Source: Thermoplasmatales archaeon (lineage in GTDB: Archaea > Thermoplasmatota > JASEFT01 > JAUWIS01). Taken from it: a stretch of 32,249 nt of DNA. Below the pieces are notes generated by a model that was not told the origin of the DNA, searched no databases, and was given only the letters and a program-made list of their open reading frames with translations. Positions 1 through 24,466 of the stretch are shown here, one piece after another. The translations under genes and the position numbers were made by a program. Positions within the stretch are counted from its first letter, which is position 1. Each line of letters begins with the position of its first letter. The DNA is taken from NCBI GenBank assembly GCA_030019485.1, contig JASEEW010000002.1:1-32249 (forward strand), in the 5' to 3' direction.

Positions 1-677
1 ATATTATTTTGTAAAATGCTGTTGGGGCAGTCAGCGATGCAGATGCCATCACCAGTGTTATTTTGAACCATACAGTTTGTTATTGTGTTGTCTGAGGAAT
101 ACTCCAGCCGGATGCCATCATCATTGTTATAACAGGCGCAGTTTGTTATTTGGTTGTCTGAGGACTCCCACAGCCAGATGGCCTCATCAGAATGGTTATA
201 ACATTTGCAGTTTGTGATGTTGTTGTTTAAGGAAGAAGATAGATAGATACCACCAGAATTGTCATATGAAGTTACATTATCAATTTTGCCATTTTGAACT
301 GAGTAAAAGTAGATACCATGCTTGTTACTGCTTTTACCATTATGAATCATGCAGTTTCTTATGATGAAATATTTGTCCGTATTTCTTATTTCTATGCCGA
401 TTGCGCTGCTCGCATTTATATCGTAATTTTCTATGATGTAAGGATTATTTATTGTGCCATCACCAGCCCAGCCTTCGCTACTCGCTTGTGATGCGAAATT
501 AGAGTTACCATCTATGCAGATTGGGTCGTGTGAAGTGAGAGATTTTGAGGGGTTTTCAGATTTCGACTCGGAAACCATAGAAACATTAGCGTTTCCTGCA
601 ACCACAACTAGCGTGCTCAGAACTAAAATCAGAGTTAGAATAGAAACGCAAAGAGTTATTGATCCAATTTTTCTCAT
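1..677 (-). CDS. Secreted or membrane-anchored right-handed parallel beta-helix (PbH1/NosD-like) repeat protein. This is the N-terminal 225 codons; the ORF continues past the left window edge.
   Basis: Absent from the ORF track because it is open to the edge. The reverse complement from the ATG at 675-677 reads MRKIGSITLCVSILTLILVLSTLVVVAGNANV (hydrophobic signal/anchor). It continues GDGTINNPYIIENYDINASSAIGIEIRNTDKYFIIRNC. Repeats of about 22 aa follow: NNNITNCKCYNHSDEAIWLWESSDNQITNCACYNNDDGIRLEYSSDNTITNCMVQNN. There is no stop in 225 codons. Confidence 0.8.
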   Translation of the reverse strand, partial: MRKIGSITLCVSILTLILVLSTLVVVAGNANVSMVSESKSENPSKSLTSHDPICIDGNSNFASQASSEGWAGDGTINNPYIIENYDINASSAIGIEIRNTDKYFIIRNCMIHNGKSSNKHGIYFYSVQNGKIDNVTSYDNSGGIYLSSSLNNNITNCKCYNHSDEAIWLWESSDNQITNCACYNNDDGIRLEYSSDNTITNCMVQNNTGDGICIADCPNSILQNN

Positions 678-783
678 ATGAAATAATAAGGTTAACTGCT
701 AATTTAAAACTTCCGACCACTATTACTCAGACGATTCTATCCCTCCTTCCATCAAAATCTTGGTAAAAGAACCCCTGATGACA

Positions 784-808
784 CCATATAATTAGACTTA
801 TTATATGG
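784..808. repeat. Perfect 9-bp inverted repeat CCATATAAT-N7-ATTATATGG between the DUF72 stop and the beta-helix gene start. It could be a terminator hairpin or a TATA-rich promoter element.
   Basis: Read directly: 784-792 CCATATAAT, 800-808 ATTATATGG. Its function is not established. Confidence 0.3.
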
Positions 809-880
809 CTTGTATACAGCTTGATATCCCCATGGAACACCCAGTTTTTCCAAATGCTGCTCCTATTGGAAAGGAATGTT

Positions 881-1600
881 TCATTTTATCATTCCCTTGA
901 ATCTTAATGCATCCTCATACATATAAACATTGTTGAAAAAAACATAATCATTTCCTTTGCATATTTTTTTCAACCTTTCTAACTCACTGTCGGAATACCT
1001 GTACCTGTAACCGCCGATGCCATGGAGTCTGAAATAACCAAAATCACCATAAACCTGTTTGTTTTTAAAAGGATCAACACAATGAACCAATTCTAATTCT
1101 TCACATATCTTTTTAACAGTTTTTTCATCCCATTCCCCCCTGGGCTCCCAGGCAAAAACAAAATCCCTGGGAATGGATGAGAAAAAATTATACATGTTTT
1201 CAATATTATTTTTTTCCTGTTTAAAACTGGGAGGGCACTGGAATAAAATAATCCTTGCTCTCAGTGTTTTTGCTATTTCTTTTGTTTTTTCGTAGGCATC
1301 AAAAACCTCTTCAATGTTTTTGAAGAAACCAGCATGTCCTGGTTTTATCTTTGTTTTTCTGTATGTTGGTGATGAAATGGGATGGGTTATAACCTGGTTC
1401 GCCTTTAATGTGAACTCAAAATTTTTTGGGGCTTTTTCCCTCCATTTCTCAGATGTTTTAATTTCTGGGATTTCATAAAATGTTTTCTGTATTTCAACAG
1501 CATTAAATCTTTCAAAGTATTTTTTCATCCCAACAGGGAAGCCGCAGCATCCTATTTTCACAATACAGGATATGCAATGAATGCTATTATCTTTTTTCAT
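881..1600 (-). CDS. DUF72 (YecE-like) family protein
   Basis: 239-aa ORF. It shows the family pattern FNAVEIQKTFYEIPEIKTSEKWREKAPKNFEFTLKANQVITHP. Its ATG overlaps the stop of the upstream radical-SAM gene as ATGA (1597-1600). Confidence 0.85.
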   Translation of the reverse strand: MKKDNSIHCISCIVKIGCCGFPVGMKKYFERFNAVEIQKTFYEIPEIKTSEKWREKAPKNFEFTLKANQVITHPISSPTYRKTKIKPGHAGFFKNIEEVFDAYEKTKEIAKTLRARIILFQCPPSFKQEKNNIENMYNFFSSIPRDFVFAWEPRGEWDEKTVKKICEELELVHCVDPFKNKQVYGDFGYFRLHGIGGYRYRYSDSELERLKKICKGNDYVFFNNVYMYEDALRFKGMIK

Positions 1601-2634
1601 CTAAGAAGATGAAGGTTTCCAATCCTCACATTTTTCAGATGCTTTTCTGCAATCTCCAAGCATTCATATGCCTGTTTCTTTGATGTTAAAGGCATGTCGT
1701 CCATGTAAAAATGTGGATAAAATCCCAGAAGGCAGTATGGAATTTTATTATCAATTGATGAAATAAATTTTGAGATTGATTCAACCTCTTTTTTATCAAT
1801 ATATCCTGGGACAAGCAGCGTGCTTGCAGTAAGGAGATGATAACCAGCATTTTTATTGTATTCTCCAAGAAACCTGAAGTTTTCAATTGTCTGCCTGTTG
1901 GTAACACCGCATAACGCAATATTTAGCTTCTCATCCCATGCTTTCAAATCAAACTTTATTGTTCCACCAGATTTTTTTGAAATAGCCGCCATTCTTTTTG
2001 CCATGTTTTTGTTCATGCTACCATTCGTCTCCCAGCATATTCTGACATTATCATTTTTTTCAACAACAAGTTCAGATGTTTTCAATGCATGAATAATTTG
2101 TGGTGTTGGGTCACCGCCAAAAAAGCATACGCATCTTGTATTTTCATCAACCATACCTGCAAGTGTCTCAGGGCTCATAACAGGGGATAGATTTTTTAAA
2201 AGGTTTCTGTAATGCCAGTTCTGACAGTAAAGGCAGTTGAAGGAGCAATTGTGACTGAAAATCCCAAAGCCGTGCATAAAGTTGCTGTATGGCGCACTCT
2301 TGGTTTTAACCTCAAAATCGTAAACATCGCCATTATACGGCAAGGATTTAATTGATGTTATTCTTAACACGTGAAGATTACTATTAATAGGTTTGCTAGC
2401 AAACTTTGATAGCTTACCTGAGATATGCTCTCTGCTTAGTCTCAGCTTCCTCCGCCTCTTGATCGTCTGTTTTGCCCATTTTGGTAAATTACTTATATCA
2501 AAGAGGAATATGGGATAGACATCTGATATAGGACTTCTCCCTTTAGAAACGGGTAGTGTTAGATTATTTCGCCTGAGTAGTGAGCCCGTGTAAGTGGCAA
2601 ATCTCTTGAGGCTCTTGTATATACTTTTTACATG

Positions 2635-2830
2635 TACACTACCTATACCGGTAGTGTATCAGGGGTCAACGTTCCTGGCTCTTGAGGCTTAAGTCCTCGT
2701 CGGGGAGCTTGTTGCCCCCTGCCTATACGGCTTACACGGATAGCAAGTTGTGGCAATGTTTGTCCACGTATCACACACAAGTTTGTGTTCCCGTATAGGA
2801 CATTGGGGCTGTTTGACCCCCCTGATACAG
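2635..2830 (+). ncRNA. Candidate structured leader RNA of the IS110 element (bridge-RNA-like). The ends are not determined.
   Basis: TATATA lies at 2618-2623. Nested stems were read by eye. The outer stem is GTATCAGGGGTCAA (2656-2669) pairing with TTGACCCCCCTGATAC (2813-2828, 2-nt bulge). Other stems are CCTATACGG (2722-2730)/CCGTATAGG (2791-2799), GGGGAGC...GCCCCC (2702-2719) and ACACA-AGTT-TGTGT (2775-2788). CTTACACGG (2732-2740) is the exact reverse complement of CCGTGTAAG (2586-2594) at the left junction. Confidence 0.35.
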
Positions 2831-2845
2831 GAGGCGATATAGAGT

Positions 2846-4048
2846 ATGGGAAACATGGTATATGTAGGTATTGATACAGGCAAAGAAACCTTTAGTGCTT
2901 GTGCACTAAATATAGAAGGAACAGAACTAATGACACCAACCAAATATGAGCATGGTAGAGAAGAATACAGAAAGTTTTTAGGGAATGCAAAAGCGATAGC
3001 CAGTGTTACTGGTGGGAGGCTTTTGTTTGGAATAGAGTCAACAGGGATTTACCATGTGCCGTTGTATGACTACCTTACGAAGAGAAACTATCAGGTGCGC
3101 GTGTTCAACGGTCTGGAATTATCCGGTATGCGTAAAAGTAGGATACGTAAGACAAAAACAGACGCTATAGATGCAAGGTTAATCGCAGGGTATCTGTTGA
3201 TGTGTTTTGATAAGGATAAGAGGAGTCCATTACCGCTTGAGTTAAGAAATCTGAGAGAGTTCTGCAGAATAAAGAAAAGGTTAACGAGAAACCTTACAAG
3301 GATAAAGAATCAACTGATAAGAGATTTAGATCTGATATTTCCAGGGTTTACAGGGATATTTTCTGACATGCTTGGTAAATCGTGTTTAGAACTTCTAGAA
3401 GAAGCATGTACGCCTAAAGAAATTATAGGTATGTCGAAAGAAAAATTACGGAAATATGTGTCTGAGAAACATGCAGTGAAACTTAAAATAGCAGCAGCGA
3501 AAACAACGTCAGTGAGTAGTTTTGATGAATCTGTAGTGTTTGAGATAGGTAGTTTGTGTAGGCAAGCAAGATGTTTACTTGATGAGCTGTCCGGGGTGAA
3601 AAAGGAAATAGATAGTGAGTATTCGCAGATAAAAACACCGTTGCAGAGTATTCCTTGTATAGGCCCAGGCACTGGTCCTGTGATACTTGCAGAGATAGGT
3701 GATGTAAAAAACTTTGATCATCCTAAAAGGATAGTGGGTTTTGCAGGGATAGATCCTGTGATAAAAGAATCAGGTAAATCCAGAAAGGAGTGTCGTATAT
3801 CAAAAAGGGGTTCAGCGTCATTGCGGTGTGCGTTGTATCAGGCAGCTTTTGCAGGGATTACTTGTAATCCGGTAATTAAAGCATTTTATAGGAAAAAGCG
3901 TTCTGAGGGGAAAACTCATAGGGATGCTGTTGTTTGTTGTGCAAGGAAGCTCTGTTACATTATCTATTCTGTCTTAAGTAATAACCGGGTGTTCTATGTT
4001 CCATCCCATATTATCGCTTCAAATGCTCAAATGAGCAAGCAGGGTTAG
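2846..4048 (+). CDS. IS110-family (DEDD/RuvC-like plus C-terminal Ser domain) transposase/recombinase
   Basis: 400-aa ORF. Motifs: VYVGIDTGKETF, GIESTGIYH, KTDAIDARLIA, and the C-terminal LQSIPCIGPGTGPVILAEIGDVKNFDHPKRIVGFAGIDPVIKESGKS...RISKRGSASLR. AGGAGG at 2829-2834 lies upstream of the ATG. Confidence 0.92.
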   Translation: MGNMVYVGIDTGKETFSACALNIEGTELMTPTKYEHGREEYRKFLGNAKAIASVTGGRLLFGIESTGIYHVPLYDYLTKRNYQVRVFNGLELSGMRKSRIRKTKTDAIDARLIAGYLLMCFDKDKRSPLPLELRNLREFCRIKKRLTRNLTRIKNQLIRDLDLIFPGFTGIFSDMLGKSCLELLEEACTPKEIIGMSKEKLRKYVSEKHAVKLKIAAAKTTSVSSFDESVVFEIGSLCRQARCLLDELSGVKKEIDSEYSQIKTPLQSIPCIGPGTGPVILAEIGDVKNFDHPKRIVGFAGIDPVIKESGKSRKECRISKRGSASLRCALYQAAFAGITCNPVIKAFYRKKRSEGKTHRDAVVCCARKLCYIIYSVLSNNRVFYVPSHIIASNAQMSKQG

Positions 4049-5939
4049 GGATTTCTTTTTTCTTAATCCAACGTGTAGTGAGTTCTAGAGAAAAAGAATA
4101 AAATTACGCAAAAAATAATAGGAGTAAGGAGTCGTTTTACTCGTCTTTATTTAGCGGATGCTATCTTTCTATCCCTATCGTGAGCCCGCAATAGTAAACT
4201 TTAATAGCAAGCTCCCCGCCATGCAGCCAAAGTTGATAATTTCTCCCTTGTAATATTCTAGGGGTTATACCGAGCCTCGTTAGTAAATATTGAATCCCAT
4301 AAGCAAGCTCTTCGCTAGCAGTTGTACATGAAATTGAGATGCTTTTAAAAACTTTTTTCCTCCCACCAGAATATCTAGCATGACTGTCGCCAACGAAATA
4401 AGAGTCTAATAAGTTCATAATAAACTTCTGTGGCATTGCGTAAACAAAATTAGGAATTCTTTTTTTATAGCAGTTAGAACCTGCGGCTAAAATCTTATTA
4501 AAAAGCAACGATAGAATCTCACTTCTGGCGTACACTCTAATGCAGCTATCTTTCCCAAGATATTTTGATATGCGAGTGTCTGCCGTAACGCCAAATACTA
4601 TTTTTATAAGATGCTTTGTTTGGTTTGCCAACCCCTTTTCCTTTATCCCAAAACAAAATTCAACTATGCCCTTAGATGTATATCCTTCTGATAAGTAGTA
4701 GCCGAGAAGTGTAGCTAATTCTGGGCTAATTTTTATAATAGCATATAGTCTATTTTTCCTGCTGCCATATTTTGCGCCTATTTTTAACTTCTTCTGCCTT
4801 CGCTTGCTGTCTTCTAGTTTTAGATATACCCAAAGAGGTAATGAGTCGGCTCTTCGCCAGTTATCAATTAGATACTCCGGAATTTTAAGTAATTTTGCTA
4901 ACTCAGATCTTGATTGTTTGTATAGGAGCTCTTTAGCATTATACACTGATATTTTTTCAACACCTAACTTTTGAAACTCTTCAATTAAATCGATTTCCTT
5001 AAGTGATTGAAGTTTAGGTCTTGGAATGTTCTTAGCAACTGGGATATAATCTCCTTTTTTCAGATATCTAGCGGGTTTCGTAGTAAAACAACTTTTTTCT
5101 AACACGATCATTGGGTGATCCAAGGTGACATGGATGGCCCTCCCATTCTCAGTTTCTATTTCCAAGATTTTACTGCTACCGCGCCTCCTCATTATTTTGC
5201 TTACGGGAGTATACATAATCCTTAAAGATTTTGGGTCAAAAGACGCAATTTTTATTTCATGTTTAGGTTTTGCCCAAATGATATCTTTAGAATGAATAAT
5301 CATATCAGACTCCTTAAACTCTTTATCTATCAACTCACCAATGGGTTGGATAGAAGGAACACCTCTCACAATAGCAAACATACGCTCAAAAGATGGTAGG
5401 CAGGCACCATAAAAAACAGCAAGATTCCTGTGAGGATAACATAAATCCCTGTTTGAGCAGAAGTTCATTGAAACACAGTTCGTGGGCAAAACGTCATAGT
5501 AGCATTCAACAACAGCATTCTCATCAACCCTGCTTTTGATTTTACCATGAACGTTTGTCCTAATACCACAGTAGCCCACATCATTTTCTGGGATTCTGCA
5601 ATTGTTCACACACAAACCACATGGAACACCATCCATGGGAGGCTTATTACGGAAAATGCCAGAGCATTTTCCTAATATTTCAGGAAAAGCCTCTTGGCTT
5701 TTCCGTGAAATAACAGGGAGAGCAAAACTTTTCCTGGACATGGTATGCGCATTCTCAACAAAAGGCAGAGCCTCATCCCACTTATCCCTGATGCATTCTA
5801 AGCATACCTTCAACGTCTTTGATATTTCCTCAGATTCTTTGTCGCAAATTTTGCATCTGGACATATTTGGTGAAACAGCGGAGTTTTTCTTAAAGTTTGG
5901 CATGAAAACTATTTAAACGCCTAATCATTTTTCATTACA

Positions 5940-7409
5940 ATGAAAAAGTTCCAAGTAGCCATTATCGGCGGCGGTGTTATCGGTTCTTCAATAGCCAGAG
6001 AATTATCAAGGTACGATGTCAGCGTGGTTGTTTTTGAATCTGGAAGCGATGTTGCATCACAGGCCAGCAAGGCAAACAGTGGGGTTATACACAGCGGAAT
6101 AAACTCTCCACCTTACTCACTCAAGGCTCGTTTATGTGTGGAGGGAAACAGGATGTTTCAATCGCTTGCCGGGGAGCTTGGGGTTCCTGTGAAATGGGTC
6201 GGAAAATTTGTTGTGGCAGGGAATGAAGATGAGATTGCTGAACTTGAACATCTCAAGAGAGTTGGAGAAAGCAACGGCGTTCCCGGGCTTGAGATACTGG
6301 ATGAGGCAGGGGTGAAAAAAAAGGAAAAAAACATATCATGCAGGGGTGCGCTCTGGGTGCCAACAGCAGGGATCACATCCCCCTATCAGCTCACGATTGC
6401 ACTGGCTGAAAATGCTGCTGAAAACAATGTGAAATTCCTGCTGGAAACAAAAGTCATTGGTTTAAAAAAACAGGCTCAGAAATTTTTTGTAAACACAACC
6501 AAGGGGGGGTTCCTGGCAGATGTGGTTGTAAATGCGGCAGGGGTGTTCTGCCGCGATATTGTTGCAATGCTGGAGGAGCCGGATTTCAATGTTTACCCGT
6601 GCAGAGGAGAGTATCTGGTTCTGGATAAATCATACAGCTGGCTGGTCAGGTCGATGGTATACCCTGTTCCGCCCAAACATACGGGTGTTCTGGGCATCCA
6701 CATCACACCCACTATTGAGGGTAACATACTGCTGGGTCCAAGTGCTGAATTTATAAATGAGGATGAGGACACTCGGACTACTAGAGAGGCGATGATTTCT
6801 CTGCTGAAGCATGCAAAAGAAATGGTCCCTGTGGTCCCAGATAATGCTGTCATAAATGCTTATTCTGGTATCAGGTCAAAGCTTGCCTCTGCTGAAAACG
6901 GTGGCTGGGCTGATTTCAGAATAGAGGAAAGCAGAAACACACCAGGGCTGATAAACATCCTGGGAATAGAGTCCCCTGGGTTAACTGCAGCGCCGGCAAT
7001 TGCTAAAGAGGCGATAGGGATAATTGCAGGGTTAATAGTGTTGAAAGAGAAAGGCAGTTTCAAATCAAACCGGGCCAGAGTCAATCGTTTTTCCGGGCTG
7101 TTAGAAACTGAGCGGGCAAAAATGATTGAAAAGGATAGTAAATGGGGCAGGGTTGTATGCAGATGTGAGCAGGTAACAGAGCGGGAGGTGACTGATGCTC
7201 TTTCCAACCCATTGGGTGCACGAACACTGTCTTCTGTTAAATACCGCTGCAGGGCAGGCATGGGGCGCTGTCAGGGGGGTTTCTGCACACCGCATATTGT
7301 CAGGATAATGAAAGATAACTTTGGGATGGATGTAATTGATATCAAACTCAAATCCCCAAACTCAACACTTTTTACCGGCAGGGTCAGGGAGGTGCGCGAG
7401 CATGGTTGA
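5940..7409 (+). CDS. FAD-dependent oxidoreductase of the DAO family (GlpA / L-2-hydroxyglutarate-oxidase-like) with a C-terminal BFD-like [2Fe-2S] domain
   Basis: The N-terminus is VAIIGGGVIGSSIARELS...ASKANSGVIHSG. The C-terminus is CRCEQVTEREV...CRAGMGRCQGGFC. 489 aa. Confidence 0.85.
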   Translation: MKKFQVAIIGGGVIGSSIARELSRYDVSVVVFESGSDVASQASKANSGVIHSGINSPPYSLKARLCVEGNRMFQSLAGELGVPVKWVGKFVVAGNEDEIAELEHLKRVGESNGVPGLEILDEAGVKKKEKNISCRGALWVPTAGITSPYQLTIALAENAAENNVKFLLETKVIGLKKQAQKFFVNTTKGGFLADVVVNAAGVFCRDIVAMLEEPDFNVYPCRGEYLVLDKSYSWLVRSMVYPVPPKHTGVLGIHITPTIEGNILLGPSAEFINEDEDTRTTREAMISLLKHAKEMVPVVPDNAVINAYSGIRSKLASAENGGWADFRIEESRNTPGLINILGIESPGLTAAPAIAKEAIGIIAGLIVLKEKGSFKSNRARVNRFSGLLETERAKMIEKDSKWGRVVCRCEQVTEREVTDALSNPLGARTLSSVKYRCRAGMGRCQGGFCTPHIVRIMKDNFGMDVIDIKLKSPNSTLFTGRVREVREHG

Positions 7410-8655
7410 GCATTTAGTGGATGTGGCGGTTATTGGTGGTGGTCCTGCAGGGTTGGCAGCAGCCGTATCTGCTGGAGAACATGGGGCTGAGCAGGTGGTT
7501 GTTATAGAACGAAACAGCTGGCTTGGTGGTATTCTACCGCAGTGCATACATGATGGTTTCGGTGTTGAGGAAACCGGCAAATCTCTAACAGGGCCGGAGT
7601 ACGCAGAGCAGTACATTAATATGGCACTGCAGAAGAATATTCAGATAATGCTGGAAACAATGGTTATTGAACTCAGAGAAAACCGTGAAATTGTAGCAGT
7701 GAACAGCAACGGCTTGCATAACATTAAAGCAAAAAGTGTTGTCCTGGCCATGGGGTGCAGGGAAAGGACAAGATGGGGTGCGATGATTCCTGGGACACGC
7801 CCGAGCGGGATATACACTGCAGGTGTGGCGCAGACATTTATCAACCTCCAAAACATAATGGTTGGGCGGAAGGTGGTTATAGTTGGCTCCGGGGATGTAG
7901 GACTCATAATGGCGAGGCGGTTGAAGCTGGAGGGTGCTGAGGTTGTTGCTGTGGTCGAAATCCTGCCATATCCAAGCGGGCTGTTAAGGAATGTTGTTCA
8001 GTGCCTGGAGGATTATGACATACCACTCCTTCTAAATCATACCGTAACAAATATTGAGGGTAAGGAGAGAGTAGAGGAGGTAACTATCTCGCAGGTGGAT
8101 GGGAACATGAAACCAATCCTTGGTACAGAGAAACAAATCAAATGCGACACACTTCTTCTTTCACTTGGTCTCATACCTGAGAATGAACTGTCCAGAATGG
8201 CCATGGTGGAGATAGATGACAGAACAGGTGGTCCATCAGTAAACCAGGAACTGGAAACAAGTGTCCCCGGGATATTCGCATGCGGCAACTGCCTCCATGT
8301 TCATGACACTGTTGACATGCTTTCTGTTGAAGCAAAGAAAGCTGGAAAAAGTGCGGTAGAATGCATTACAAATACTGGCCGCAAACAATACGAAACTGTT
8401 ATTCACGTGGTACCTGGGGAAGGGGTTAGATATGTTGTTCCACAAAGGATTAATAGGCCTGGAAAGGTGGAGTTGATGTTAAGGGCAAAAAAACCTATGG
8501 AGCCCGTAGTGCTGCAAGTAACTGCTGGTAAAAGAATTATTCTAACAAAAAAGTTGCGGTGTGCGACCCCTTCCAGTATGATTAAAATAGGCATTGTTAT
8601 CCCCCCTAGAGTATTTGCATCCAGGGCTGCATTGGAGGTGAGGCTCATTGGCTGA
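7402..8655 (+). CDS. FAD-dependent pyridine-nucleotide-disulfide-type oxidoreductase, partner of the preceding gene
   Basis: The start is placed at the ATG at 7402 (MVEHLVDVAVIGGGPAGLAAA), preceded by GGGAGGTG at 7386-7393. It overlaps the upstream stop by 8 nt. A second Rossmann motif is VVIVGSGDVGL. Confidence 0.85.
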   Translation: MVEHLVDVAVIGGGPAGLAAAVSAGEHGAEQVVVIERNSWLGGILPQCIHDGFGVEETGKSLTGPEYAEQYINMALQKNIQIMLETMVIELRENREIVAVNSNGLHNIKAKSVVLAMGCRERTRWGAMIPGTRPSGIYTAGVAQTFINLQNIMVGRKVVIVGSGDVGLIMARRLKLEGAEVVAVVEILPYPSGLLRNVVQCLEDYDIPLLLNHTVTNIEGKERVEEVTISQVDGNMKPILGTEKQIKCDTLLLSLGLIPENELSRMAMVEIDDRTGGPSVNQELETSVPGIFACGNCLHVHDTVDMLSVEAKKAGKSAVECITNTGRKQYETVIHVVPGEGVRYVVPQRINRPGKVELMLRAKKPMEPVVLQVTAGKRIILTKKLRCATPSSMIKIGIVIPPRVFASRAALEVRLIG

Positions 8656-12155: not shown

Positions 12156-14738
12156 CTATAATGTTTTTAACTCTTCCTCCACTTCCTTAATCTTTTCTAT
12201 GTTGTCTAACTGTTTGTATGTTGTTAAAGCATGACCGAAGTATTCTTTTGCCTTATTTCTTTCCCCTTTCGACTTGTGCATTTTCCCATACTCAAAGTAT
12301 ATCTGGGATAAAAACTCGATGTCTTTGTTTTCTTCAGCCATGCTCATAGACCTTTTGAAATGCGATGTTGCCAGCTCCCATTTTTTTCTGTTTCTGTGTA
12401 TTATACCGTAGTTCAAATGGCATTGTGTAAGCATCCTTTTTTCATCAAGGCGTTCAAAAATCTTTAATGCCTTATCTGTGTAATCTATTGCTTTATCCAG
12501 CATCCCTTTCCTTGTATATCCCTCTGCTGCATTGCTCATCCCGTAACCGGTCATTCTCACATCACCAATTTCATTGCTGATTTTTATACATTTCTCATAC
12601 CATTCTATTGACCTGTCAATATCTTTCTTTCCATCATAAACTGCGCCAAGGTTGTTATATATTTTTGCAATTTCATGTTTGTCCCCTGTTTTGTCTGCAG
12701 CGTCAAGCGCTTTCATCATTATTTCAATACCTTTATCATATCCTCCTTTCGACCAGTATGCAACACCCATTGTTCTGTATGTTTTTACCATCAGTGATAT
12801 GTCACCAATCTTCTGGCAGAAGTCAAGGCATAGTTTAAAGTTGTTCATTGCGTCATCAATCTTTCCTTTGCGCAGATGCACGACCCCCATCCCGTAGTAT
12901 GCATCCGCTGCACCGTGAACATCGTTGATTTTCTTTGAAATTTTTAAAGCATGGTTTAGATTTTTTAGCGCTTCATCATATTTCCCCCTTGGAAAACAGA
13001 TTTTTGCTATACCAAGGTATGCCTCAACACTCTCCTTTTCATCACCAGCAGCAAATTCCAGTAATAGTTTGTAATACCTCAATGAGTCATCCCATTTTCC
13101 CATGACCTCAGAGGCTTTTCCTTTAAGGAGCAATATGGGTAAACGCTGTTTTTGAAACTGTTTTTCATCAAGTTCTTTTAATATATGCATAAACCCCTCT
13201 GCATACCCTGATTTTATGATACTAAAACCGTTTTCAACAGCAGTTTCTCCAGCCTTTTCGTTGTTTTCTGCTTTAAGAAGATGGTGCATGTATTCAATTC
13301 TAGCATCTTCACCTTTCTCATTTTCATAGTATTCTGCCGCAATGCCATGATAATATTTTTTATGTTTTAGGTTCAGTCTGCTGTAGCAGAAATCCCTGAG
13401 AATCTCGTGGATGCCATAAATGTTGTCCAGTCTTTGAAGCAATGATTTTTCTGTAAGACTGTCTATTGTGTCATAATCTATGTCCTCGACAAGCAATGCC
13501 CTTGGATAAAAAGGGTACCTGAACACTGATGCAATTTCAAGCACCTTCCTCTCAGGTTCATTTAGTCTTTTAAAGATTTCATCCCTCAAAAACTCCTCAG
13601 CCTCAATTGCTGTTTCTGGTGATATCAGTTCCAGCATAAGTGGATGTCCTTTTGTCAAAGAATAAAGTTTATCCAAATCTTTTTTTATTCCTCTGTGCAT
13701 AAGCAGTTTTTCACTGCTTCTTTTATCAAGCTCCTTTAATTTCATTTCCAATATATTTTTTTTCACAACAGCATCCTTCCTGCCGTAAAATGATGGAATA
13801 CTCCTGCCTATTACAATTGTTTTTGAACCTGTTCCCAGCTCCTTAAACGAGGAGAAGAAATCAACCACTCTTTTGTTTGCATTTTCAAAATTGTCAAACA
13901 CAAGTAGCATGTTTTCATTCATTTCCTCCTCCAAAAGTATCATTATTTCCTCAATTTTAACCTCCCAGATTTCCATGTAACTCCTCAGTTTTTCCTTCCC
14001 AATTTTTGAAAGAAACTTTGACAGCTTTGCAAGCATGCCTTCCAGTGTGCTGAAAGGATAAAACCTGTGCCAGAAAACATTTCCTTTACATCCTTCTAAA
14101 ACCTTTGACACAACAGCAGTCTTGCCAACACCCGCGATGCCTTTGATAACAAGAATCCCTGCCCCTGACTCTATGAAGTTTGATATTTCCTTTAACTCTT
14201 CTTCCCTTCCAACAAAATATTTAACCTCAGGTTTTCTCTCAGAAAAATTAACCTCTTTTTTAATCTCAAGAACATCCTCCAAATCAAGAAAATCATCAGG
14301 CAGAATATGTTTCAACACGTTTGTATGATTTATTTCCATTTTTCCTTTAGATTTTTTTTTCAGATAATCAACTACTTCTCCTATTTTCATCTCTCTAATC
14401 CTGTTTTTCTCCCTAACATTTAAGGTTTTTTTATCAACTTCCTTTTTTAATTCCTTTGCTTTCATAATACCATCGGATGTAAGGAAATAAAAACTTCTGA
14501 ATCTGCCTGTCTCAAGGAGATGAAAACGCTTTTCCTCAATTAATCCCTCTTTTTTAAGAAGTTTTAATCCCTCTGAAACAAGCCTGTGTGAAATATTTCC
14601 CTCCTCCTCCATCCCAGACTGGGAGAAAACAAGCACGGGTTTTGAAGAAAGCTGCTCGTTTATGTGATCATGCAAAAGAATAAGGATTTTCTCCCTGCCA
14701 GAGAGCTTGAGCATAAAAGTAAAACAGCATTTCTGCAT
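12156..14738 (-). CDS. Winged-helix (wHTH) plus STAND/NB-ARC-like NTPase plus TPR-repeat protein (860 aa)
   Basis: The N-terminus is LSGREKILILL...ISHRLVSEGLKLLKKEGLIEEKR...YFLTSDG (wHTH). Further motifs are FVGREEELKEI, Walker A GIAGVGKT, Walker B MLLVFDNF and a GxP motif TKGHPLMLELI. The C-terminal region of about 320 aa consists of TPR-like repeats. Confidence 0.85.
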   Translation of the reverse strand: MQKCCFTFMLKLSGREKILILLHDHINEQLSSKPVLVFSQSGMEEEGNISHRLVSEGLKLLKKEGLIEEKRFHLLETGRFRSFYFLTSDGIMKAKELKKEVDKKTLNVREKNRIREMKIGEVVDYLKKKSKGKMEINHTNVLKHILPDDFLDLEDVLEIKKEVNFSERKPEVKYFVGREEELKEISNFIESGAGILVIKGIAGVGKTAVVSKVLEGCKGNVFWHRFYPFSTLEGMLAKLSKFLSKIGKEKLRSYMEIWEVKIEEIMILLEEEMNENMLLVFDNFENANKRVVDFFSSFKELGTGSKTIVIGRSIPSFYGRKDAVVKKNILEMKLKELDKRSSEKLLMHRGIKKDLDKLYSLTKGHPLMLELISPETAIEAEEFLRDEIFKRLNEPERKVLEIASVFRYPFYPRALLVEDIDYDTIDSLTEKSLLQRLDNIYGIHEILRDFCYSRLNLKHKKYYHGIAAEYYENEKGEDARIEYMHHLLKAENNEKAGETAVENGFSIIKSGYAEGFMHILKELDEKQFQKQRLPILLLKGKASEVMGKWDDSLRYYKLLLEFAAGDEKESVEAYLGIAKICFPRGKYDEALKNLNHALKISKKINDVHGAADAYYGMGVVHLRKGKIDDAMNNFKLCLDFCQKIGDISLMVKTYRTMGVAYWSKGGYDKGIEIMMKALDAADKTGDKHEIAKIYNNLGAVYDGKKDIDRSIEWYEKCIKISNEIGDVRMTGYGMSNAAEGYTRKGMLDKAIDYTDKALKIFERLDEKRMLTQCHLNYGIIHRNRKKWELATSHFKRSMSMAEENKDIEFLSQIYFEYGKMHKSKGERNKAKEYFGHALTTYKQLDNIEKIKEVEEELKTL

Positions 14739-14958: not shown

Positions 14959-16449
14959 ATGAACAGTGAACCTGTTTATGCGCAAATAATGAGGGAAAGA
15001 AAACATCAGAAAACATGGGCCGGTATTGTGGTTTTTTTCGTTGTGCTCTGGGTAGTCATGACACTGGTTGCACTTTACACATGGAGCTCTGGTTTCATGA
15101 CCGCAACTTCTGGTGGTGCGGGTGCGCCAACCTGGTACAAGCAGGAGGTACCTGCTGAGCCTAAAAGCATGGTGATAGGGGCTGTGCTTGACTGCGGGTA
15201 TGTGAGAATAGAGGATAAGCAAGTACCTATATATACCCTGCATTACAATGCCGAATTTATATACAGAAATACAAATACTGAAAAAGCGTATATTCCTCTG
15301 CCCAGCGGCTCTGTTGAAAACCTTGCTGTGAAGCTAAATAATGTTTTAATCCAGCCAAATATTCAGTCACACAAAATAGTGCTGGACCTGCCTGCCGGTG
15401 AGAACACTGTGTATATATCATATACTACAAGAGGCTCATACGAGTATTCCCATTCAGTGCCAAAGGACAGACTCATGGAAAAGTTTTACATGAAACTTGA
15501 AATTAAAAATATAAAATACGATAGAAATTTACCAAGCGAATGCCTAGAGCCTGATAAAGAGTACATATCAGATGGGAATACTGTGTTTGAGTGGGATAAA
15601 AAGGATGCTGTTCTCAGGAAGGAGATAATAGTCGAACTACCTGAATGGAAAAACCCGTTTGACACGTATTTATCACTGCTCCCTTGGATATTCCTCCTGT
15701 TATTCCTCCTTGGTTTGTTCTACTATGAGGCATTCAGGAGAACAAATATGCAGTTGAACATTGAATCCTTTGGATTCCTGATAGTGCCGTTCATACTACT
15801 GATGCTCTCAGTACCTGCCCTTGTTGTTTACATAGATGTGGAATATGCTGTAGGTTTTTCCATAATATTTGCTGTTGCAGCAATGTTTGTGATAAAGAAA
15901 AAGGTTCTCATGGTAACAAAAGCATTCCTTGATATTTTCCTCCTTCCCGCACTTGCATTAATTTCTGTCTGCACGTTTGTTACTGTTTCAGCACCATACG
16001 GCGGAACAATTGGAATAATATGCATTATCTTATCAGTCCTAGTCGGTGTTAAATTCTTCAAGGAGAATAAGGGCCCAAAGGAAAAAATATCCATTGACAG
16101 CATCCTGACAAAAATCCAGTCATTGTCCGATGAAAAAAAACAGGTTGAAACAGTGCTGGAAAATGAGAGAAAGGAAAAGGAGCTCCTGAAAGAAAGAATA
16201 AAGAAAGGCGTGTTCGCAAAAAATTTCTGCCTCTACTGCAAATCCATTGTGAAACCAGATTTTGACTTCTGCCCAAAATGCGGAAAGGAGATAAAGTACA
16301 TAGAAAAATGTGAAAAATGCGGCTCACTTGTTCATTCTGAAATCGGCTTATACTGCCCTAACTGCGGTGAACCTTTAAAGAAAGGGTTAAATGCAGGTAT
16401 GAACCTTGCTTTTATGGAGGGAGACTATGGCAGAGCTGGAGAAATGTAA
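14959..16449 (+). CDS. Multi-pass membrane protein (1 TM, extracytoplasmic domain of about 210 aa, 5 TM) with a cytoplasmic coiled coil and a C-terminal double zinc ribbon
   Basis: The start is set at ATG 14959 (MNSEPVYAQ), preceded by GGTGAT at 14949-14954. Hydrophobic segments are WAGIVVFFVVLWVVMTLVALY, LLPWIFLLLFLLGLFYY, FGFLIVPFILLMLSVPALVVY, AVGFSIIFAVAAMFVI, IFLLPALALISVCTFVTV and IGIICIILSVLVGV. The zinc ribbons are CLYCKS...CPKCG and CEKCGS...CPNCG. Confidence 0.8.
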   Translation: MNSEPVYAQIMRERKHQKTWAGIVVFFVVLWVVMTLVALYTWSSGFMTATSGGAGAPTWYKQEVPAEPKSMVIGAVLDCGYVRIEDKQVPIYTLHYNAEFIYRNTNTEKAYIPLPSGSVENLAVKLNNVLIQPNIQSHKIVLDLPAGENTVYISYTTRGSYEYSHSVPKDRLMEKFYMKLEIKNIKYDRNLPSECLEPDKEYISDGNTVFEWDKKDAVLRKEIIVELPEWKNPFDTYLSLLPWIFLLLFLLGLFYYEAFRRTNMQLNIESFGFLIVPFILLMLSVPALVVYIDVEYAVGFSIIFAVAAMFVIKKKVLMVTKAFLDIFLLPALALISVCTFVTVSAPYGGTIGIICIILSVLVGVKFFKENKGPKEKISIDSILTKIQSLSDEKKQVETVLENERKEKELLKERIKKGVFAKNFCLYCKSIVKPDFDFCPKCGKEIKYIEKCEKCGSLVHSEIGLYCPNCGEPLKKGLNAGMNLAFMEGDYGRAGEM

Positions 16450-19021
16450 GTACAGGGTCATAGGTGTGAAAGGCATATTCTGCTCAGGCGGAAGTACCGA
16501 GAAAGAAATGGTTGATGTGAAAACCTGCTCCACATGCATGATTCCTTCACTGGCAGAAGAAATAAACTGTGTTTTCCTTGATGCAAGAAGAATCATGGAA
16601 AGCACGCTTCCCGGCGTTGTCAGGGAAATGCACAGCTACCATATGACATGTGCGCTCGGCAATGAATTGAAACTCACAAACAAGGGGATTTGCATGAAAT
16701 GCCCTAACAGACGCAAGGCTGTACAGCCTGATATTAGATCAGACTTTGTGGGAAGAGGAAACGAACTTGCGGAACTAAAAAAATATCTGGGGCTCATGCT
16801 CAGCCACAATGGAAACACTGTAATGGTAAGCGGTGAGCTTGGTGCTGGAAAAACAAGGCTTGTTAATGAGCTGAAAAAATATGCTATTATGCGCAATGTA
16901 AGATTTTTGAATGGCAGAGCTCTTTATGCTGAGAAGCTGACACCCTACCTTCCGTTTAAGGAAATACTCAGGGCATATGTTGATGAAATGAAAAAATCTG
17001 GGAGCACCTCAGCAATCAATGATATTCTATCTGCAGGAGAAATATCTGAGCTTTTACCTCTGGGTTTGCCGTCAGGCTCTGCTTTAAAAACAAAGGATGT
17101 TCAAATTGGAAGGGAAAGAATGTTTGAGGCTTTCTACAATGCTATCGTAAAAATGGCTGAGGAAAAACCATTGATACTGTTTGTGGATGACCTGCAGTAT
17201 GCTGATACTGCCTCACTGCATCTTCTTCACTACCTTTCAAGAAACATTAAGAACAGCAGAATCATGCTCATAGGCGCATATCGTCCTGAGGAGATAGTAA
17301 ATGCTGATAACCCGCTTTCTGAGACTCTTGGGAGAATGGATACTGAGCGTTTGTATCATACCATAGAAGTAAAGAGACTCAATGTAGATGATGTGAAGGA
17401 AATGATAGGCTCTATAACTGACAAGGGTGTAGATGATGATTTCATAGATTTCATTTACGATAAAACAAACGGCAACCCTTTGTTTGTTGAGGAAATCATT
17501 AAATCCTCTGATAAAATGCAAAAAACACCTGACACAATAACGGATTTGATTAACAGGAGAATCGAGAGGTTAGGTCAAGAGGTCATAAATGTACTATCAT
17601 ATGCCGCAGTAATAGGTAGCAAATTCTCCTATGATACACTGCGGGATGCATCCAGTATTGATGAGGAAAAAATTGTTGGAATTCTAGAGTCTTTAATAAA
17701 ACTTAGAGTAATATATGAGGAGCCTACCATTCTAGGGCTTTACTATTTTAATCCCCCTATAATAAAAGAGGTTGTGTATACTGGTTTGAGTGAAAAAAGG
17801 GCAGAGCTGCTGCATAAAAGGGTTGGGGGCGCACTTGAATCCTGCAGGGAGAAAAACCTTGGCGTTCTTGCGTACCATTTTTCAAAAGCAAGGGAATATG
17901 GGAAGGCACTGCATTATTCTGAATCTGCTGGGGACAAAGCAGTTTTGTCGTTTGCTCCGAATGAGGCAATGAAGTACTATGAAACAGCATTAAACTCATT
18001 TGAAAAACTTGACGGAAAAACCTCTGAAAAAACAGGACTGCTGAGCAAGCTAGGGCAGGTGTATTTCACGGTTGGGGAATTTGATAAATCAATAGAAACA
18101 TATGAAAAACAGATAGCACTCTGCATAAGCTCGGATGACAAAAAACCTTTGGCAAAAGCATACAGAGCGGTTGGTGAAATCCATGCCATAAGGGAGGAAT
18201 GGAAAAAATCATTGGAGTACTACAGTGCAGGCATGCAGGTCTCTGAAAAAATAAAAGACACACTTGGCATGGCTGAGGCGAAGAGGGGGATAGGGATGGT
18301 TTACTGCAGGGCAGGCAAATACAATGAGGCGCTACTGTGGCTTAAACAGAGCCTGAACAACAATGAGCCCTCGCTTACGGCGCACATCAGGATGGACATT
18401 GGAACGGTTTACTGGTACCTTGGAAGGTATGAGGAGGCTGTTGAAAACTATGAAAGAAGTCTGAAATATTTTGAGGAAAAAAACAACAAGCCCATGGTTT
18501 TGAGGGCTATGATAAACACTGGTGTGGTGTACACAAAAAAGGGTGAGCCAGAAAAGGCAATCGCCTGCTATGAGAAGGCTGCTGGGCTGTCAAAAACAAC
18601 TGGTGAGCTCAGGCTTAATGGTTATGCGCTGTCAAATGCTGCGGAGGAACTTATCAAAACAGGAAATATAGAAAAGGCGCTGGATTATTCTAAAAAATCA
18701 ATGGAAATATTTGAAAAAATAGGCGAGAAGCACATGATTGCAAACACACACATGGTTTACGGCATCGCATACAAATGCAGAAAGGAATGGGGAAAATCAG
18801 AGGAGCATTTCAGAAAAGGAATCCAGACAGCAGAGGAAGCGCATGATTTGGATATGCTCTCCCAGAATTACATGCAGTATGCCCTCATGCATAAAGAAAA
18901 AGGCGACATTAAGAATGCATTAAAATGTTTTCAGAAAACAGTGGAAACATGCAAAAAACTTGGAAGCAGGGAGCTGATGGAAAAAGCAGAAAAGGAAATT
19001 GAAAAACTGGGATGTGAATAA
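16427..19021 (+). CDS. Cys-rich N-terminal domain plus AAA_16-type STAND NTPase plus TPR-repeat protein (about 864 aa)
   Basis: The start is set at ATG 16427 (MAELEKCKY), preceded by GGAGGG. It overlaps the upstream gene by 23 nt. Motifs are FVGRGNELAEL, Walker A GELGAGKT and Walker B LILFVDDLQYAD. The C-terminal TPR module is visibly paralogous to that of the 12156-14738 protein. Confidence 0.85.
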   Translation: MAELEKCKYRVIGVKGIFCSGGSTEKEMVDVKTCSTCMIPSLAEEINCVFLDARRIMESTLPGVVREMHSYHMTCALGNELKLTNKGICMKCPNRRKAVQPDIRSDFVGRGNELAELKKYLGLMLSHNGNTVMVSGELGAGKTRLVNELKKYAIMRNVRFLNGRALYAEKLTPYLPFKEILRAYVDEMKKSGSTSAINDILSAGEISELLPLGLPSGSALKTKDVQIGRERMFEAFYNAIVKMAEEKPLILFVDDLQYADTASLHLLHYLSRNIKNSRIMLIGAYRPEEIVNADNPLSETLGRMDTERLYHTIEVKRLNVDDVKEMIGSITDKGVDDDFIDFIYDKTNGNPLFVEEIIKSSDKMQKTPDTITDLINRRIERLGQEVINVLSYAAVIGSKFSYDTLRDASSIDEEKIVGILESLIKLRVIYEEPTILGLYYFNPPIIKEVVYTGLSEKRAELLHKRVGGALESCREKNLGVLAYHFSKAREYGKALHYSESAGDKAVLSFAPNEAMKYYETALNSFEKLDGKTSEKTGLLSKLGQVYFTVGEFDKSIETYEKQIALCISSDDKKPLAKAYRAVGEIHAIREEWKKSLEYYSAGMQVSEKIKDTLGMAEAKRGIGMVYCRAGKYNEALLWLKQSLNNNEPSLTAHIRMDIGTVYWYLGRYEEAVENYERSLKYFEEKNNKPMVLRAMINTGVVYTKKGEPEKAIACYEKAAGLSKTTGELRLNGYALSNAAEELIKTGNIEKALDYSKKSMEIFEKIGEKHMIANTHMVYGIAYKCRKEWGKSEEHFRKGIQTAEEAHDLDMLSQNYMQYALMHKEKGDIKNALKCFQKTVETCKKLGSRELMEKAEKEIEKLGCE

Positions 19022-23419: not shown

Positions 23420-24466
23420 TCACTCCAACAATAATTTACTGACAGTAATAAATGCGTTCTCAACATTTTCCCCTGTTTTTGCAGATGTGAAAAGATAAGG
23501 GGCTTTGAACTCTGATGCGACAGCTTTTATTTCTTTTTCATTAAAAACCTTGTTAGGCAGGTCTATTTTGTTCGCAAGGAAAACCAGTGGGATTTCACCT
23601 GTGACCTTAAAAACAGCATCTTTCCAGTTTGGTATGTTTTCAAGTGTTTCCTTCATTGTAACATCGCATACAATAATAGTTGCATCTGCACCCCTATAGT
23701 AGGTTGAATGCACTTTACCAATGCCTTTCTGCCCTTCAATATCCCATATCATCAATGTAAAATTTACATCGTGCGTCGGATAGCTTATATCTATAACCTT
23801 TTTTGTGATTTTTGCACCAATGGTGTAAAGGTATTTATCATCAAACATGTCATAAACATACCTTCTTACCAAACTTGTTTTTCCAACAGCAGGATCGCCA
23901 ACAAGGCATATTTTTTTCATTAACTTTTTCATCTTTTTCACCCTAACCTCCCTTTTTATTTCTTCTATTTTCTGCCTGCATTTTTCCCCCTCATCAAACC
24001 TGCCAAGTGCAAGAAGAACCTCTGCTTTTTTATTGTAGGCATCAATGGATTCAGGATTGATTTCTACGGCTTTATCAAAACATTTTAATGCCTCATCAAA
24101 CCTATGGATGTCTGAGAGCAGAAAACCTTTTGTAACCCATGCCTCCTCATTTTCAGGGTCTATCCCTGTTATGGTATCGCAGCATCTAATTGCCTCATCC
24201 TGCTTGTTTTGCATAAGCAATGCCACCTCTTTTCCTTTCCATGCTGTTATGTATTTCTCATTGATTTTTGTTGCCTTTGTAAAGCAGTTTATTGCCTCAT
24301 CAATTTTCCCAAGAATAAGCAATGCATTCCCTTTTTCATTGTATGCCTCAGCGTATTTTGGGTTGAGTTTTATAGCCTTATCAAAACATTCAAGGGCATT
24401 CCCATATTTTTTTGCCTGCATAAGGAATCTACCTTTAGTCAGGAATGTTATCTCATCCTCTCCCAT
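23420..24466 (-). CDS. Fusion of N-terminal TPR repeats with a C-terminal Ras/Rab-like small GTPase
   Basis: TPR-like units include AEAYNEKGNALLILGKIDEAINCFTKATKIN. The GTPase motifs are G1 GDPAVGKTS, G2 YTIG, G3 WDIEGQ, G4 NKID and G5 SAK. Confidence 0.85.
   Translation of the reverse strand: MGEDEITFLTKGRFLMQAKKYGNALECFDKAIKLNPKYAEAYNEKGNALLILGKIDEAINCFTKATKINEKYITAWKGKEVALLMQNKQDEAIRCCDTITGIDPENEEAWVTKGFLLSDIHRFDEALKCFDKAVEINPESIDAYNKKAEVLLALGRFDEGEKCRQKIEEIKREVRVKKMKKLMKKICLVGDPAVGKTSLVRRYVYDMFDDKYLYTIGAKITKKVIDISYPTHDVNFTLMIWDIEGQKGIGKVHSTYYRGADATIIVCDVTMKETLENIPNWKDAVFKVTGEIPLVFLANKIDLPNKVFNEKEIKAVASEFKAPYLFTSAKTGENVENAFITVSKLLLE

Follow-up and report, generated by a model that had tools for sequence, protein, structure and literature searches.

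In the 32,249-nt stretch of the Thermoplasmatales archaeon contig JASEEW010000002.1 analysed here (the window), positions 1597-5903 hold three nested elements: a radical S-adenosylmethionine (radical-SAM) gene on the minus strand contains a LAGLIDADG intein, and the coding DNA of this intein contains a plus-strand insertion sequence (IS) of the IS110 family. A preliminary description of the window had proposed this nesting, which is confirmed here with corrected IS junctions; its core is borne out by the Pfam content of the open reading frames (ORFs), by the ORF restored upon removal of the IS, and by an intein-free allele of the gene. As a whole, the locus is best explained as a radical-SAM gene carrying a LAGLIDADG intein that in turn carries a bridge-RNA-guided IS110-family element, a reading to which we assign a probability of about 0.88.

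Element limits and the restored intein precursor

The minus-strand ORFs at 4161-5903 (580 aa) and 1597-2370 (257 aa) are the two halves of one gene. In Pfam, the former matches Intein_splicing (N-terminal part) and LAGLIDADG_3, and the latter, when extended to 2658, matches Intein_splicing (C-terminal part, profile 114-155) and Radical_SAM. All four ORFs on which the preliminary description was built were recovered at identical coordinates, as were the motifs that it quoted, namely NLAVFYGA followed by CLPSFERMF, VTLDHPMIV, two LAGLIDADG motifs, GDVYDFEV, and FGIFSHN followed by CSFNCLYCQNW.

The limits of the IS were set by aligning related copies with the window, the closest encoding transposases of 83-84%, 68%, and 55% amino acid identity. 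Judged by where similarity starts and stops in these contig alignments, both ends are conserved within different flanks (contigs L001-L004, L089, L091, and L094-L096), and a CT dinucleotide lies just outside both ends in every copy with flanks (eight relatives: L003, L004, L089, L091, and L094-L097). In the window, the element thus spans 2616..4211 on the plus strand (1,596 bp), with the ends TGTATATAC... and ...AACTTTAATAGCAAG. One copy of the CT core (2614..2615, plus strand) forms the junction between the left target flank and the IS left end, and the other (4212..4213, plus strand) the junction between the IS right end and the right target flank. An inverted-repeat scan found no terminal inverted repeats pairing the two ends, and neither a second IS copy nor an intact cognate target was found within the window.

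These limits replace the previously proposed ones (2589-4180), each of which lies about 27-33 bp away from the true junction. The earlier limits probably followed a 9-bp direct repeat, GTGAGCCCG, which occurs at 2580-2588 in intein DNA and again at 4180-4188 inside the IS right end, and which mimics a target-site duplication. We rejected this repeat as a junction: related IS copies do not share it, and its length is within chance, as 132 of 300 shuffles produced a 9-bp repeat in a comparison of a 100-nt flank with the whole IS. Deleting 2580-4179 leaves the gene out of frame (579 aa). Deleting 2589-4180 does preserve the frame, but solely because both 1592 and 1598 leave a remainder of 2 when divided by 3, and the resulting junction (...GGELAIKVYYCGLTGSLL...) is chimeric and does not align with homologues.

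Deletion of 2616-4213, that is, of the IS together with one core copy (1,598 nt), leaves the empty-site sequence TCTCTTGAGGCTCTCCCCGCCATGC and yields an uninterrupted ORF of 902 aa, rather than the 904 aa originally predicted. Its two halves had been described as free of stops, and no stop or frameshift occurs across the 2,709 nt. It follows from the true IS limits that the upstream half ends in 16 codons (LAIKVYYCGLTIGIER) and a stop, at 4161..4211 on the minus strand, that are antisense sequence of the IS right end; an exhaustive HMMER search found no homologue matching the 580-aa ORF past approximately residue 564-575. Likewise, the downstream frame is open to 2658, as had been noted, but its stretch 2616-2658 belongs to the IS and not to the gene.

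The restored product matches Radical_SAM, Intein_splicing, and LAGLIDADG_3 in Pfam and aligns end-to-end with four homologues of 851-905 aa (P0121-P0124; 42-46% identity over 98-100% of the length). These homologues, one of whose clusters is labelled Promethearchaeota, carry the same three domains and have their intein at the same position (FYGA|C...HN|CS(F/Y)(N/D)CL(Y/F)CQNW). The repaired junction ...QLWLHGGE|SLKRFATYTG... aligns with ...IQGG(R/T)(S/N)L... in the homologues.

The intein comprises 519 aa (residues 168-686 of the restored protein). Its N-terminal segment (4214..5402, minus strand; residues 1-396 and the first base of codon 397) carries Cys1 (CLPSFERMF), block B (VTLDHPM), and the LAGLIDADG motifs LLGYYLSEGY and LLDSYFVGDSH, and its C-terminal segment (2248..2613, minus strand; residues 398-519) begins with SLKRFATYTG... 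and contains block F (GDVYDFEV) and block G (FGIFSHN). Once rejoined, these segments form a single Intein_splicing domain (residues 20-519, 63.8 bits) alongside two stretches that match LAGLIDADG_3 (E=1e-16). The splicing residues C168, VTLDH (the TxxH of block B), SHN, and C687 are present and invariant in comparison with P0121-P0125, and both LAGLIDADG acidic residues and the YD.E of block F are also invariant in the homologue alignment. The IS lies in intein codon 397, where the second LAGLIDADG_3 domain (Pfam 328-405) ends, and before blocks F and G.

The insertion point of the intein itself lies immediately 5' of the TGC codon for the first cluster cysteine of CSFNC, and this residue would double as the +1 splicing nucleophile. 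A related LAGLIDADG intein (approximately 35% identity) occurs in P0125/P0296, members of a different radical-SAM family (Fer2_4 and Radical_SAM), where it precedes the third cysteine of CX3CX2C; hence, two cysteines of the same motif serve as +1 residues. On the contig that encodes P0121, a Top6A/Spo11 protein (L008, 1-895) also has Intein_splicing and LAGLIDADG_3 matches, and the genome in question appears rich in inteins.

The IS encodes an intact 400-aa IS110-family DEDD/serine recombinase (transposase) at 2846..4048 on the plus strand. It matches both DEDD_Tnp_IS110 (PF01548, 1-155/155) and Transposase_20 (PF02371, 3-87/87) and is homologous to the IS621 recombinase (PDB 8WT6; E=1e-20), with which the motifs GIDTxKE (GIDT), IExTG (IESTG), TDxxDAR (TDAIDAR), and ESG align. 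A look-up of the exact transposase sequence found no record. The 84% identical transposase gene on L090 (1501-2670) has no recognisable left or right IS end; this copy could be decayed, captured, or rearranged.

Predicted bridge RNA and its matches to the flanks

The 230-nt left end of the IS folds into two stem-loops that are kept in four relatives, with 13 pairs showing compensatory changes and a minimum free energy z-score of -2.83. From this consensus fold and the inverted repeats I12 and I13, we predict a bridge RNA at 2655..2829 on the plus strand. Each stem-loop holds a conserved cap hairpin between variable segments, in which we located candidate guides, named here after Durrant et al (2024, PMC11208160).

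In the first loop, the putative left target guide (LTG; 2674-2682, CCTGGCTCT) shares six contiguous matches, core included (...GGCTCT in both), with the left flank TGAGGCTCT. The cap hairpin of this target-binding loop (2683-2699) is followed by the right target guide (RTG; 2701-2707, CGGGGAG), an exact complement of CT+CCCCG at 4212-4218, and by CTTG (2708-2711), which complements the right-end terminus CAAG. The predicted target is TTGAGGCTCTCCCCG, with the halves TTGAGGCT-CT-CCCCG. In the second loop, the left donor guide (LDG; 2740-2749, ATAGCAAGTT) corresponds to the right end ATAGCAAGCT with a single difference that still allows a U·G pair; beyond the cap hairpin of this donor-binding loop (2750-2767), the right donor guide (RDG; 2768-2781, ...ACAAG) complements CT+TGT (CTTGT) of the left end.

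Guides and flanks change together across nine related insertions. The LTG matches the left flank of its own element at 5.1/7 non-core positions and those of other elements at 2.2/7, and the corresponding values for the RTG and the right flank are 4.8/5 and 1.7/5; no cross pair of guide and foreign flank is perfect. Read from sequence comparison, such co-variation is the signature of bridge-RNA-guided insertion.

Two further observations concern these RNAs. An 11-nt identity (CTCTTGAGGCT) links the left target flank at 2603-2613 with bridge RNA positions 2679-2689, covering the LTG end and the cap hairpin's 5' arm. Relative to the core-aligning register, this match is offset by 9 nt, and none of 2,000 flank shuffles reached 11 nt; a shifted pairing of this kind might have helped to capture the site. 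In addition, L094 and L095 (232-365 vs 202-439) carry two copies of one related IS (P0006) in TTCGCG-CT-TTCGCG targets, and in the L094 copy an internal deletion has removed the entire donor-binding loop, making it a natural bridge-RNA deletion variant.

Host gene, insertion history, and alternative explanations

The N-extein (5403..5903, minus strand) has 167 aa as the longest ORF, features a zinc-ribbon-like CxxC...CxxC and CGLCVNNC, and ends with ...NLAVFYGA. All homologues begin with MxxCKIC, so that translation probably starts at the ATG at 5864 (Met14) and not at 5903. The C-extein (1597..2247, minus strand; 216 aa and stop) starts at Cys+1, the first cysteine of CSFNCLYCQNW, and comprises the rest of the radical-SAM core. 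The CX3CX2C motif CSFNCLYC therefore arises at the splice junction, and the spliced sequence matches PF04055 with E=3e-15.

Over 6,600 relatives of the spliced extein (383 aa) lack an intein; they measure approximately 340-390 aa, come mostly from archaea and in part from bacteria, and bear no label more specific than 'radical SAM protein' or 'PFL activating enzyme'. The extein falls well short of the cut-offs for the AmmeMemoRadiSam enzyme (TIGR04337; 59.8 bits vs equivalog cut-off 220) and for the pyruvate formate-lyase activating enzyme (PFL-AE; TIGR02493, 42.4 bits vs 231.75), and its nearest PDB match, PFL-AE, is only distant (E=7e-4). By these scores, the protein is related to the AmmeMemoRadiSam and PFL-AE families without being a member of either, and belongs to a large unnamed PFL-AE-like family. 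Scanning the genome collection with the restored protein retrieved 80 loci, all intein-free. Longer matches at L026 and L034-L037 were considered as mini-intein alleles and rejected, as they reflect a tandem AmmeMemoRadiSam-like paralogue beside the family gene. In these loci, which come from several bacterial metagenome-assembled genomes (MAGs; Nitrospirota, Deltaproteobacteria, and Acidobacteriota), the family gene lies directly 3' of the paralogue (e.g. L034, 6001-7878). From this arrangement, a functional link between the two families may be suspected.

The search for an intein-free allele led to L005, which shows the precise insertion point: it encodes the closest extein relative (P0140, 85% amino acid identity; exteins 86% identical at the nucleotide level), has neither intein nor IS, and the two exteins of the window join onto it without a gap. 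L005 is also syntenic with the window, with genes for LarA, DUF1667, Pyr_redox, and a DAO-type oxidoreductase followed by the divergent radical-SAM gene and DUF72. With a start at 5864, the divergent intergenic gap to the DAO-type gene would widen from 36 to 75 bp; it measures 74 bp in L005. The DUF72 gene of the window (881..1600, minus strand; 239 aa, Pfam DUF72) overlaps the radical-SAM stop with its ATG. This ATGA overlap, which the preliminary description had pointed out, recurs as the same 4-nt overlap in L005, whose DUF72 protein is 82% identical. The ratio of nonsynonymous to synonymous substitution rates (dN/dS) against L005 is 0.19 for the extein and 0.28 for DUF72. Such low values argue against a long pseudogene history, and a recent, although not datable, IS insertion is plausible.

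We envisage the following history. A radical-SAM gene in an operon with DUF72 would have gained the 519-aa LAGLIDADG intein just before the first cysteine of CX3CX2C. The IS110-family element would later have integrated into the intein coding DNA at codon 397, after the second LAGLIDADG half-domain and before the C-terminal splicing blocks. Integration would have been guided by the left-end bridge RNA, with one loop pairing the target GGCT-CT-CCCCG and the other the element's own joined ends, ATAGCAAG-CT-TGTAT... (donor junction ATAGCAAG-CT-TGTATATAC). Recombination at the shared CT core would leave the element flanked by a CT at either end, without further duplication.

Translation from the gene start would now end at 4161, giving a product of the N-extein, intein residues 1-397, and 16 IS-encoded residues. 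In the downstream half, no in-frame ATG, GTG, or TTG occurs between 2658 and 2370 before the GTG at 2370, and neither a Shine-Dalgarno-like sequence nor a recognisable promoter was found upstream of this GTG. As the C-terminal intein piece and the C-extein thus lack a start of their own at the break, cis-splicing would be impossible and the enzyme lost. DUF72 would lose its translational coupling, and transcripts reaching it would have to cross 1.6 kb of antisense IS, within which minus-strand runs of T5 and T6 lie about 100 nt inside; a polar effect on DUF72 is possible. Spontaneous repair by IS excision is possible in principle and should not be assumed: IS621 excision is reported to be less efficient than insertion (PMC13626964) and possibly to proceed by copy-out (bioRxiv 10.64898/2026.08.31.748434).

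Several points weigh against a bridge-RNA-guided insertion that inactivated an intein-bearing gene. Four homologues carry an uninterrupted intein at the identical site, but no uninterrupted copy of this particular intein allele (>50% identical) was found in the databases searched. The LTG of the window matches only 4/7 non-core left-flank positions, a value towards the low end of the range of related natural insertions (3 to 6/7); half-matched substrates are reported to suffice for IS621 recombination and to account for approximately half of its non-target insertions (bioRxiv 10.64898/2026.08.31.748434). Searching Rfam with the left-end RNA produced no hit, whether the gathering threshold or a limit of E≤10 was applied. 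That the bridge RNA is expressed and the recombinase active in this archaeon are predictions, loss of the radical-SAM enzyme is the most probable outcome, and the junctions are those of the assembly.

It is highly improbable that the IS landed in dead DNA, the gene and its intein having long been decaying as a pseudogene. IS elements do accumulate in non-essential DNA, and the intein allele is rare, as only two or three 50%-identity representatives (P0294, P0406, and the partial P0319) among 1.84 billion span N-extein and intein. However, the absence of stops and frameshifts, the conservation of Cys1, the block B Thr/His, the acidic residues of both LAGLIDADG motifs, and the block F, terminal HN, and Cys+1 positions, and the dN/dS values of extein and DUF72 against the intein-free allele all speak against such decay.

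We give only slight credence to the idea that the locus represents a split intein being born, with an IntN-type and a 41-aa IntC-type piece, or a reversible on/off switch operated by bridge-RNA-mediated excision at the CT cores. If true, the split halves could trans-splice and keep the radical-SAM enzyme alive; in the milder version, excision at both CT cores would restore the ORF exactly. The stronger claim that the IS has already made a working split intein, whose N-fragment (to 4161) and C-fragment (from GTG 2370) trans-splice so that the enzyme is still made, is barely credible. The break does fall between the endonuclease domain and block F, the canonical split position; the GTG would give a 41-aa piece (MLRITSIKSLPYNGDVYDFEV...SHN) preceding the C-extein that resembles a natural IntC in size and shape; and 'fractured genes', in which a gene lies between split-intein halves, have been described (PMC2677866). 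Against this stand the missing initiation signals before the GTG, an N-fragment that keeps the whole endonuclease domain plus 16 foreign residues, and the relatives, none of which has this arrangement and all of which were found to be contiguous.

Equally hard to credit is a metagenomic assembly chimera, in which a repeated IS contig was stitched between the halves of a gene that is intact in the cell: the window does look like a MAG-type contig and the closest IS relatives lie on short contigs of ~1.6 kb, typical of collapsed repeats, but both junctions coincide exactly with conserved IS termini and are each bordered by a CT core, the frame and the residues shared with homologues return once the IS and one core are removed, and the element's own guides are complementary to both flanks, which a chimera would not mimic and which makes this explanation very unlikely.

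A nested insertion guided by a bridge RNA therefore remains our preferred account of the locus. In the wider window, G+C is ~0.34-0.42 over positions 1-5900 (DUF72, radical-SAM, intein, and IS) vs ~0.46-0.51 at 6000-8000 (divergent oxidoreductase genes), and differs little between the intein (0.37) and the exteins (0.37-0.41). An archaeal origin of the window is supported by its threonyl-tRNA synthetase, which has the editing domain specific to archaea. Eukaryote-like signalling domains occur on this archaeal contig in two large STAND-type ATPase-TPR proteins and a TPR-Ras/Roc small GTPase fusion, encoded at 12156-14738 (minus strand), 16406-19021 (plus strand), and 23420-24466 (minus strand).

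Comparison with known systems

The literature searched, with incomplete coverage, yielded no description of an intein invaded by an IS or transposase; cases from Thiomargarita, a Campylobacter phage, and Nostoc were considered as precedents and found not to be relevant. The locus offers a clean natural example of three layers of parasitism, in which intein coding DNA is open to an RNA-guided IS110 element. It also provides a natural archaeal insertion whose predicted bridge-RNA guides can be read against both flanks, which supports the bridge-RNA model beyond the bacterial systems studied, together with a small co-varying set of nine guide/target pairs. As the intein sits on the cysteine that is the first Fe-S ligand, cluster assembly must wait for splicing, and the radical-SAM enzyme adds a non-replication host to the intein sites located in catalytic motifs. 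For annotation, the locus carries a warning: both gene halves were lengthened by IS-derived codons, and a chance 9-bp repeat suggested a false junction.

The innermost layer resembles the IS621/IS110 bridge recombinases (Durrant et al, 2024, PMC11208160; Hiraizumi et al, 2024, PMC11208158). It shares with IS621 the two recombinase domains, a non-coding left end of ~230 nt upstream of the gene with two stem-loops, stem-loop 5' sides that repeat the top strand and 3' sides that complement the top strand of target or donor, a CT core flanking the element, and the lack of inverted repeats. The element differs from IS621 in its archaeal host, low sequence identity, cap hairpins, and loop spacing; its RNA, predicted here from sequence, is detected by no Rfam family; and contiguous LTG pairing in this clade extends over 6-8 nt including the core.

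For the intein, the nearest solved structure by sequence is PI-PkoII (Thermococcus kodakarensis Pol intein 2, PDB 2CW7), to which all three intein segments match. Both consist of an N-terminal splicing region, a two-motif LAGLIDADG endonuclease, and a C-terminal splicing region, and both have Cys1 and a terminal HN followed by Cys+1, whereas the intein described here resides in a radical-SAM rather than a replication protein and is interrupted by an IS. A curated precedent for an intein in a radical-SAM enzyme exists in the tetraether lipid synthase Tes (NCBIfam NF045703), whose model the present intein matches over the intein portion (E=6e-27). Tes belongs to a different radical-SAM family, however, and the match of 93.8 bits is well below the cut-off of 1700.

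The nesting itself is comparable to twintrons, IStrons, and homing endonuclease genes interrupted by group II introns (PMC4801052), in which a selfish element likewise lies inside the coding region of another that is itself located in a host gene. There, the inner element is as a rule lost from the RNA, which leaves the outer one functional, whereas the IS described here is not spliced out, so that its nesting is destructive unless the IS excises. All three layers are thus of established types, namely LAGLIDADG inteins, IS110 bridge-recombinase elements, and radical-SAM enzymes, and the locus is a composite of these rather than a new type of system.

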